Below, piece by piece: positions 24,001 to 27,000 of a stretch of 51,167 bases of DNA. The first letter of the stretch is position 1. Each line of letters begins with the position of its first letter. Origin of the DNA: an archaeon (GTDB taxonomy: Archaea > Iainarchaeota > Iainarchaeia > Iainarchaeales > 0-14-0-20-34-12); assembly GCA_038046645.1 (NCBI GenBank), contig JBBSVU010000006.1:87414-138580 (forward strand), given 5' to 3'. The position numbers were made by a program.

Positions 24001-27000
24001 CTTTTGATGCCTAGGAACTTTTATTTTTCTTCTTAAGAAAAAGAAAAGTTGCTATTGGACTGGTCGGGATTCGAACCCGAGGCCTCCACAATCGTGTTGA
24101 AGTTAAACCCCATTGCCAATGTGGCGATCTACCAACTGATCTACCAGCCCTTTACCGTAAGCTAAGTATAGCTTACAATAATATTTGCAGAAAATAAAGG
24201 ATGTTTAATTTTCATTAAACATTAATGAATACGATTGAATCTCCTCTTATGAGCATCTCGCTGTTCTTGCTCTTTACCTGTCCTTCCTCTAATTCTTCAG
24301 CTTCTCCTAAAACAATATTAAGATGCACATCAAATCCTTTTAATACACCTCTTACCTGTTTTCCTCCTTTTAGCTGAAGAAGGACATTCTGCCCTATCCT
24401 CTTTGTTAATACATCGAATGGTTTTACTGTCATTTCCCTCACCCTTAAAAAATAAAAACAGTTTATTTTCTAAATATCACTCTTAGGATTCTCTTAATAA
24501 AGCTTTCTTTGTGCGTTTCAACACTAACTTCCCCACCTAGCAGTTTTATTGCAATGGTTTCAATTGCTTTTGATGCAGGGCAGTTAGGGCATCTTATTAC
24601 AACAGGAACGCCTTTTTTATCATAGAATGACCTTCGCACTTCTTGGTCATAGGGGATTACGCCATAACAGGGCAATTCCAAAGTTTGCATTATCTCTTCT
24701 TTTTCTAATTCCCCCTTTTCATTCCTTAGCATATTTATTATTACACCAATTGCATGCCCGCCCAATTTTTCCGTAATTATTTTTGTTTTCAAGCCATCAG
24801 CCAAGCTTGCTGGAGTAGCTTCTGTTATTAAAAGTACGGCATCAGAACTGGTTAAGGCTGATAATACTGCACGTTCAATCCCTGCAGCTGCATCAATCAG
24901 GATAAAATCATAATTTTCTTTTATTGTGGAAATTACAGATCTCAATCGTTCAGAATCTATCTTCCTGTAACTCTCCAAGCTTAAACCTGAAGGCAATATT
25001 TCAATGCCATTCGGCCCTTCATACAATGCATCCTGTATCGAGGTTTCACCCAATAAAACATCATGTAAGGTAATTGGGGATGTTTGCATCCCAAGAAGTA
25101 AGGATAGATTAGCCATCGCAATGTCTGCATCCACAAGCAGCACTTTCTTGCCCTGCCTTGCCAGGCAAATTCCTAAGTTAGCTGTAAGCGTAGTTTTCCC
25201 AGTTCCGCCTTTTCCAGAAGCAATTGTAATTACTTTACCCATATCCTTCAGTATCTATTATAAAACAAGATAATATAAATTTTAGTTTTTTTAATTAACC
25301 CTTATCTATGCCTAATAGCCCCATTTTTTTCATTATATCATAACGTGATTTCTCATCTGATTCCTTTATCCCTTTTTCTGAATATTGGGTTGAATATGCC
25401 TTGGGGATTAATTTTGCTAAATCTTTTAATTGATATCCCTTTACTTTCATCACATCCTTAAAAGTAATAGTTAGTTCAACCTGCTGTTTTGAAAGTGAAT
25501 TTATATCAAGAACGCCGTATTTTGCCTTGAATGCATTTAATATTCGTACAAGAGCTTCCTCACCTTCAATGCTATGGTTTGAAGTATCATAAGAGAACAA
25601 GGCTCCAACAATAATTCCCTTTTGGAATAATAATAAGCCTTCTTCTATTCCAGCATAGCCGTAAATAGTAAGTACAATATACCCTGAAAATTCACTATCC
25701 ATAAAACTTTTGAATAATTCTTCAGGATTCACCTTATTTATATTAAGCCCTTCCTCAATCTTTTCTCCTGCTGGAAATTCCATATTATTATTAAACACCC
25801 CATCTATTTAAATTTGCTTTTTGGCAGCATAAGATAATAAAAGCGTGATTAATTGCAATTAGATAATTTTATCTCAAAGCTATGCAGGGGAGGGGACAGT
25901 TTTGAATTCCTACCAAAAACTAAAGTATCATTAAACCTTGCAGAACTTTCAAAAAAACTTTCTGAAAACGGCTTTGGCATAAAGGCAGAAACTAAATTAG
26001 TAATATTAGTAAATTATTCGGGCACAAACATAAGCATCTTCCAGGATGGCAAAATCCTTGTTAAAGAAGTAAAGGAAGAATCCAAAGCAAGGGAATTAGC
26101 CTTGCTTATCCTTGCTAGAATTAATGCCTGAACCCTCTTCAAAAGGTTTAAATAGTTTGAAAGCCTATTTTTCTCAACAAACAACCGTTTGGAGGTGTTG
26201 GTTTGGTAGATTTTGTTTTAGGGCTAAAAAAGCCGTTTCAAGATATTAAAACACTAGTTATCGGAATTATTTTAGGTATGATTCCTTTCATAAGTTCACT
26301 TACAATTCCGGGATTTGGGTTAAAGGTAGCTGAAAAAACCCTTAAGGGCGACAATAAGCTTCCTGATTTCCTTGAGAATATTGGGGATTTAATCATTAAA
26401 TCCGTTTTATCGATAATTATAGGCCTGATTTATTTGATTCCGGCATTGCTCGTGCTTGTTGTCTCAATTGTGCTTTTTGCTTCAAGCCTATTAGGAAGCT
26501 TTACCGGATTATTAACTGGAGGCAATGTTGACTTTACTGCACTCATGGCAGCTTTAGGACCTTTTTTAGGTTATATGCTTGTAGTGATACTTTTGTTCTT
26601 AATTGCAGTATTCCTGCTGCCCTCAGCATTAGTTAATTACGTTGCATCAAATAAATTTTCTGCAGCATTCTCTTTTGGCACGGTAATTAAGAAAGCATTA
26701 ACCTTGAAGTATTTCATAGCCTGGATCTTTACAGTAATCCTTTACTTTGTTTTAGCATTCATTGTAGGGTTGCTTTCACTCATTCCGGTTGCAGGAACTC
26801 TACTAGGCACAGGGTTAATGATGTATTCATTGAATGTAATGGAATACACTTGGTTTGCAGAAGCCTGCAAATAAAGTGATGCATAAAATAGCAGCGTGTT
26901 ATTAACACGCTGTTTCTTATTCTTTTTTAATTACATATTCACTGATTGAATTATGAAATCACTTTTTTTAGGCAAGATTTTTGGCATTGAATTGGAATTG

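Follow-up and report, generated by a model that had tools for sequence, protein, structure and literature searches.

The large ribosomal subunit of the Iainarchaeota has no recognisable eL37 (L37e), a protein regarded as almost universal among archaea and eukaryotes, the site of which is filled by bL34 in bacteria. The loss is wider than this phylum but not DPANN-wide, and an unrelated order of archaea most likely lost the gene independently; in both lineages, eL39 carries a C-terminal tail that extends beyond its normal end. That eL37 has truly been lost is very probable. We consider it somewhat better than an even chance that the loss is accompanied by partial replacement of the protein by the eL39 tail.

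The Sm locus and the range of the absence

The locus lies in the window, i.e., the whole stretch of DNA analysed (51,167 nt; G000:C6:87414-138580), which belongs to a genome, designated G000, that is 89% complete and divided into 25 contigs. On the minus strand, the genes for a MinD-type ATPase and an Sm-like protein are followed by a short spacer and a tRNA-Ala gene (Table 1). The Sm-like protein shares 99% identity with its counterpart in a record titled Ca. Diapherotrites (Iainarchaeota). An eL37 gene requires approx. 160 nt (the protein has 53-62 amino acids in most of 80 homologues); thus, the gap of 64 nt between Sm and tRNA-Ala leaves no room for it. An earlier note on this DNA had stated that Sm is followed here by tRNA-Ala and that Sm normally precedes eL37; the latter is borne out by a crude motif test, in which an Sm motif was detected upstream of the gene in 60 of 80 eL37 loci drawn from at least 120 matches in the genome collection, and by the published linkage of the two genes (accessible text of PMC10221803). 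Sm occurs in one copy per genome in all 41 Iainarchaeota searched. In the loci of 30 relatives (one of which ends 94 nt downstream), no conserved small basic ORF was found 3' of Sm, and a tRNA-Ala gene follows within 700 nt in 13 of them.

Table 1. Features of the window and of related loci (plain numbers are window positions; other locations are given by contig or locus)
Feature	Location	Strand	Basis or remarks
Single-copy gene for an Sm-like protein (Lsm/SmAP), 72 aa	24215..24433	-	PF01423, 71.8 bits
AT-rich spacer, 64 nt (empty eL37 slot)	24151..24214	.	sequence; shorter than a gene for 53-62 aa
tRNA-Ala(GGC), 95 nt	24056..24150	-	ARAGORN; ~22 extra nt 3' of anticodon arm
MinD/ParA-family ATPase, upstream of Sm	24463..25242	-	PF13614, PF01656; same order in G001
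eL15 gene, ordinary, 199 aa	20874..21473	+	PF00827, 214.6 bits; PDB matches
Probable coiled-coil protein, 457 aa	22493-23866	-	no Pfam family
Listed ORF, 171 aa	19043-19558	-	no Pfam family
tRNA-Val	19529-19599
eL39, 67 aa, outside the window	G000:C6:38486-38689
eL40 (G001)	L073:1939-2097	-	solved structures
eL40 (G006)	L035:5804-5959	+	solved structures
eL40 (G000)	G000:C15:279-458	+	solved structures
Finger family A7, 60-76 aa	L067:8209-8388; L023:4112-4303; G000:C2:25872-26171	+; -; +	C-x2-C-x14-H-x2-C
Small basic family A8	L119:12470-12634; L129:9409-9690; G000:C6:12944-13159	-; -; -	small-ORF comparison
23S hairpin loci	L073:7210-7250 (G001 23S); L042; L429; G000:C17		RF02540 positions ~119-128

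Several features around the locus deserve mention in their own right. The extra nucleotides of the tRNA-Ala gene probably represent an intron in a non-canonical position; the tRNA-Ala gene of a close relative (L013) is 73 nt long, compared with 95 nt in the window. Genes resembling that of the 457-aa probable coiled-coil protein lie directly 3' of Sm in several relatives (L398, L403, L416, and L420). The listed 171-aa ORF begins within the tRNA-Val gene, and its true start, if the ORF is real, must therefore be sought further downstream. The eL15 protein of the window compares with solved archaeal chains of 194-196 amino acids.

In the whole genome, PF01907 scores no higher than 16.6 bits, below its cut-off of 27.6, and the ORF matched at that score encodes an eS31-type protein, in agreement with the absence first reported. 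The phylum-wide absence, which had been based on 151 genomes, now stands at 0 of 201 Iainarchaeota over the cut-off, with all four archaeal controls positive, and at 0 of 58 among genomes that are at least 90% complete. Weak matches (E<=0.01) occur in 46 of the 201 genomes; among the best ten, which were the rows classified (the other 38 were left out), six are eS31-like, three lie in frames of 301-426 amino acids, and one is an unrelated zinc ribbon. The positive controls, namely eL39, which was detected in 188 of the same 201 genomes, the universal recovery of Sm, and eL37 itself in three other phyla (see below), uphold the conclusion that this large subunit has no recognisable eL37.

The description of the absence as a property of one phylum was correct but too narrow, as a larger clade and a second lineage also lack the gene. 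In a small sister phylum, represented here by G201, eL37 was found in 0 of 31 genomes and eL39 in 28. This phylum is probably B1Sed10-29; its assignment to 'Micrarchaeota' was dropped, given that it comprises only 31 genomes whose records bear mixed titles (archaeon, Nanobdellati, Iainarchaeum, Micrarchaeota). Record titles are unreliable: L288, titled Micrarchaeota, has eL37 and was sampled in one phylum together with Aenigmatarchaeota-titled records. The negative result of the earlier note in five DPANN bins does not generalise, since eL37 is present in 29 of 31 genomes of the phylum of a Woesearchaeota-titled record and in 233 of 251 genomes of the phylum containing an Aenigmatarchaeota-titled record. 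It was also detected in all 61 genomes of a third phylum (genomes of approx. 2 Mb), the scores in the three phyla being 54-95 bits, and single Undinarchaeota- and Nanohaloarchaea-titled loci carry it as well.

For Micrarchaeota proper and Altiarchaeota, the status of eL37 is taken from a published table rather than from our own searches. Dataset S9 of PMC12892359, as far as accessible, gives a fraction of 0 for arCOG04126 (L37E) in Iainarchaeota, B1Sed10-29, and Micrarchaeota and 0.43 in Altiarchaeota, and it also lists 0 for Hydrothermarchaeota; the table is based on gene calls and undercounts eL37 elsewhere (0.54 in Thermoproteota). The same source unites Iainarchaeota, B1Sed10-29, and Micrarchaeota in one clade, with Altiarchaeota at the base of their cluster. 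One loss of eL37 in the ancestor of these three groups is the simplest reading.

The second lineage came to light through eL39. Three non-DPANN eL39 sequences, from records titled Geothermarchaeota or Thermoprotei, have short tails, and when the tail was taken as a predictor, eL37 proved absent from those three genomes and present in two with a normal eL39. In the order of G529 (records titled Geothermarchaeota), the Pfam model, the only means by which this lineage was tested for eL37, detects the protein in 0 of 17 genomes, with eL39 found in 15 of them; in the rest of the class, eL37 was found in 40 of 44. A tRNA-Ala gene follows Sm at +62, +67, and +160 nt in three of four loci of the second lineage. 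Two eL37-bearing relatives (L202 and L267) have the order Sm-eL37-tRNA; run without an intron search, ARAGORN reports an unassigned tRNA at one of these two loci and no tRNA at the other. Between the two lineages, the tails differ in sequence, which points to separate origins.

The eL39 tail and the vacated site

The eL39 gene lies between eS19 and eL31-eIF6, of which eS19 and eIF6 were named by eye and are presumed; eL31 adjoins it in all 37 Iainarchaeota eL39 loci. In genomes of the Iainarchaeota/B1Sed10-29/Micrarchaeota clade, the protein is commonly annotated as hypothetical, and it was identified by alignment across its forms and by PDB eL39 chains. The strong divergence ascribed to it earlier is only half of the matter: the G000 protein indeed scores 11.7 bits on Pfam, below the cut-off of 21.6, but eL39 is retained in most of the phylum and is C-terminally extended, and PF00832 does match the forms of G001, the G201 phylum, and the G529 order. 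The Iainarchaeota proteins have 57-110 amino acids and run past the normal end; in most of them, four residues are inserted ahead of the P.W motif; solved eL39 chains nearly all have 48-52.

The number of residues after the last conserved tryptophan separates the two kinds of genomes. It is 10-62 in all 80 eL39 sequences inspected from eL37-less genomes: 14-62 in Iainarchaeota (37/37), 10-39 in the G201 phylum (28/28), and 10-17 in the G529 order (15/15, of which 12 end in an FF-containing motif). In all 24 eL37-bearing genomes inspected, it is only 6-8, comprising 17 of 17 sisters from the class of G529 (6-8 residues) and seven further genomes (7 residues); the shortest tail, of 10 residues, is thus 2 longer than the longest normal end. 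The 37 Iainarchaeota sequences consist of the best 30 from the search that matched 188 genomes, made with a model built from long forms, and seven from distant families, with 151 further matches left out. Also left out of the counts were L188 (a second weak match in G216), L196 (a near copy of L189), and five Poseidoniales eL39 with 7-residue ends, for which eL37 status was not determined. One named Micrarchaeota eL39 has 11 residues after the tryptophan, and two close relatives have 11 and 10.

The tail is predicted by AlphaFold2 (33-sequence alignment) to form a helix at residues 48-61 with a pLDDT of approx. 85. Its sequence is conserved within each lineage and differs between the two: in the DPANN clade, it is a basic helix starting [LFI]G..[IFY], although the tails of L170, L172, and L181 from the G201 phylum are short and without the Gly-helix motif, and in the second lineage, it is shorter and reads K[TR]K..FF. 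When the model of the extended eL39 was submitted to Foldseek, only weak rows were returned, the first five of which were ribosome chains. In a separate observation on 15 eL37-bearing genomes, mostly DPANN, eL39 went undetected by Pfam in 11 (G236, G238, G240, G242, G243, G245, and G276-G280), which may be a mirror image of the eL37 loss or mere divergence.

Two other origins of the tail were considered. General lengthening of ribosomal proteins was tested on the adjacent eL31, the tail medians of which are 64, -2, and 3 residues in three eL37-less groups and 75 and -1 in eL37-bearing ones; as they do not follow eL37 status, such lengthening fails to explain the pattern outside Iainarchaeota. 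Within this phylum, the median of 64 residues indicates that long basic tails occur on other ribosomal proteins too, and because such tails are added freely, the distal part of its eL39 tail may be generic. A fusion of eL39 with eL37, brought to mind by a QGK word in some tails, was discarded: the tails are without cysteines, the word is not general, and eL37 models miss the tails.

In solved ribosomes, the C-terminal end of eL39 probably touches eL37. According to the proposed mechanism, eL37 would have been deleted once at the base of Iainarchaeota, the small sister phylum, and Micrarchaeota, and a second time in one order of Thermoproteota-type archaea (the Geothermarchaeota-titled records), leaving Sm adjoining tRNA-Ala in both lineages. 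eL39 would have been kept in both and lengthened at its C-terminus; if its end does touch eL37, the tail would run into the vacated eL37 site, covering part of the rRNA surface and of the eL39 end normally held by eL37 and restoring part of the charge and packing, and the large subunit would be stable with neither eL37 nor bL34. That the tail points into this site and compensates functionally is inferred; a tail of 7 residues could stand in for no more than a portion of a protein of 55. A complex prediction with normal eL37 and normal eL39 gave a score of 0.00 and no contacts, an outcome that speaks neither for nor against the contact. Since there are only two independent events and kin share tails, the correlation of tail and loss carries no statistical weight.

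The main rival to replacement by the tail holds that eL37 was lost and nothing fills its place: the pocket would be vacant or sealed by altered rRNA, and the extension of eL39 would either cap its own freed end or be incidental. This is rather unlikely, but it accords with the fate of bL34, which is mostly buried and yet has been lost outright in some bacterial lineages (accessible text of bioRxiv 10.1101/2021.01.31.429008), and with the second-lineage tails, which are only 3-10 residues longer than normal. It is further favoured by a 23S hairpin (Table 1) that is missing in four of four eL37-less genomes and present in four of four eL37-bearing ones, although the four that lack it are all kin. 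The tail, however, is found in both separate losses and in 0 of the 24 eL37-bearing genomes, and its conservation within each lineage argues against an incidental feature; moreover, 88-94% of eL37-less genomes retain eL39, whereas in 11 of the 15 eL37-bearing ones mentioned above Pfam does not detect it. As a side observation on the rRNA genes, 16S and 23S (L042, L035) are approx. 140 kb apart in G006 and adjacent in G001.

Replacement by the eL39 tail remains our preferred reading. A bolder extension of it, to which we assign somewhat less than an even chance, is that of a convergent third architecture at the eL37/bL34 site, in which there would be no dedicated protein and the eL39 tail, accompanied in the DPANN clade by loss of the nearby 23S hairpin, would have come to do the job twice.

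Searches for a disguised eL37

The eL39 and eL40 of the phylum fall below Pfam detection, and therefore an eL37 that has diverged beyond recognition keeps low odds. It is improbable that the site is taken by such a protein, zinc-less or extremely diverged, or else by some small basic protein unrelated to eL37. The zinc-less form, which the earlier note had left standing, was looked for directly in all six translated frames of G000 and of two relatives assembled in one contig each (G001, 99% complete; G006, 94%), and none was found. In these three genomes, unfiltered single-sequence eL37 searches yielded no match with E under 0.3, and the maximum score was 12.1 bits with an 80-sequence eL37 model and 13.7 bits with its cysteine-blind version, against at least 56 bits for genuine eL37 sequences in which Ser replaced Cys (an in-sample control). 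The C-terminal eL37 motif R.Y.W without cysteines had no match there, and the N-terminal motif KGT.S.GK had two, both in long unrelated proteins.

A comparison of small basic ORFs among the same genomes recovered eS31, eL24, eL44 (eL42), eS27, uS14, eS17, eL33, uL29, eL39, and eL40, so that even eL39 and eL40 were still within reach of simple searches. The eL40 proteins, missed by Pfam at E<=0.001, were identified through solved structures; they have a longer loop between the zinc knuckles. Two small conserved families were left without assignment and might be held to favour a hidden occupant of the site. Family A7 consists of a finger and a C-terminal helix and is conserved in all three genomes; it has no Pfam or NCBIfam family over the cut-off, only weak LIM-like matches, and its model (pLDDT 69.5) has no clear fold match, the best having a Z of 3.3. 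The basic family A8, without a family match, has two copies in G001 and one in G000 and was not found in G006. Compared with eL37 by hhalign, A7 gives 7.6% and A8 0.4%, against 6.5% for the unrelated control eL40, so that the similarity of either family to eL37 is no greater than the chance level seen with eL40. The ESM Atlas held no usable match to A8, and a DPANN eL37 retrieved only eL37 clusters without useful taxa.

The remaining candidate is a zinc-ribbon ORF in G089 with a weak NCBIfam L37e match (19.6 bits against a cut-off of 71); it scores 17.7 bits on the 80-sequence eL37 model, stands in another gene context, and has no counterpart in G000, G001, or G006. As a transferred replacement, bL34 (PF00468) was found in none of six genomes (0/1 and 0/5), with ten bacterial controls positive. 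Finally, the possibility that gaps in the assemblies or the search method merely simulate the absence, which the fragmented state of G000 and the prevalence of bins might suggest, is very improbable and already largely refuted by the controls, for the Sm slot is intact and mid-contig, no genome of at least 90% completeness passes the cut-off, two single-contig genomes lack eL37, and equally fragmented bins of other phyla yield it in 93-94%.

Significance and comparison with known systems

Ribosomes with neither eL37 nor bL34, which have two separate origins, both accompanied by an eL39 with a tail, constitute a natural experiment on the contacts at this site and on how the extension of a neighbour takes over from a lost protein. 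If the convergent-architecture reading is true, the length of the eL39 tail would predict loss of eL37 anywhere in archaea. The absence of eL37 together with the tail marks the clade of Iainarchaeota, B1Sed10-29, and Micrarchaeota, and eL37 should not be counted against the completeness of its genomes.

The loss itself has been partly tabulated; what is new is the second, unrelated loss and the repeated pairing with an eL39 tail. In the micrarchaeon 'Ca. Mancarchaeum' Mia14, L37E (arCOG04126) was reported absent (Golyshina et al. 2017, PMC5498576, which also attests to co-cultures of Micrarchaeota). The same gene is missing there and eL39 is kept, and the supplement, as far as accessible, also scores 0 for two Iainarchaeota genomes; however, the accessible text describes the reduction of one genome and mentions neither a loss across the clade nor a second one, nor a tail on eL39. 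The table is noisy: one file has a 0 for N. equitans, and eL39 is scored 0 in both Iainarchaeota. The marker-selection table of PMC12892359 (2025) has the same loss boundary as that found here, but 'L37' occurs 0 times in its main text, and its accessible parts contain nothing on eL39 length or a second lineage. In PMC13473441, an L37e row has two zero columns, and 'L37' likewise occurs 0 times in the main text; three supplementary files of PMC7414124 have no L37e row. In the literature covered, from which subscription journals and image tables were largely excluded, no text was found on clade-wide eL37 loss, a second loss, or the eL39 tail, and an earlier remark on the clade-wide loss may exist in print.

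That ribosomal proteins are lost in particular lineages is well documented. Galperin et al. (bioRxiv 10.1101/2021.01.31.429008) describe such losses, including that of bL34 in bacteria, which occupies the eL37 site (accessible text of PMC10764239). As in the present case, a small buried protein at the same site is dispensable in whole lineages, and proteins are known to have been lost independently more than once. In the text portions of that study, its tables aside, the archaeal losses do not include eL37 by name, and the loss described here, unlike those, is paired twice with an extension of eL39. This pairing concerns a protein that is buried, bridges rRNA domains, and has 65% of its surface on RNA (accessible text of PMC10221803). 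A second parallel is provided by eL39 itself, which replaces the tunnel loop of bacterial uL23 (accessible text of PMC9932298), i.e., a segment of one ribosomal protein stands in for another near the exit tunnel. In contrast to that case, the substitution proposed here, of an eL39 extension for part of eL37, would have taken place within archaea, and it is a proposal from sequence rather than a structural finding.
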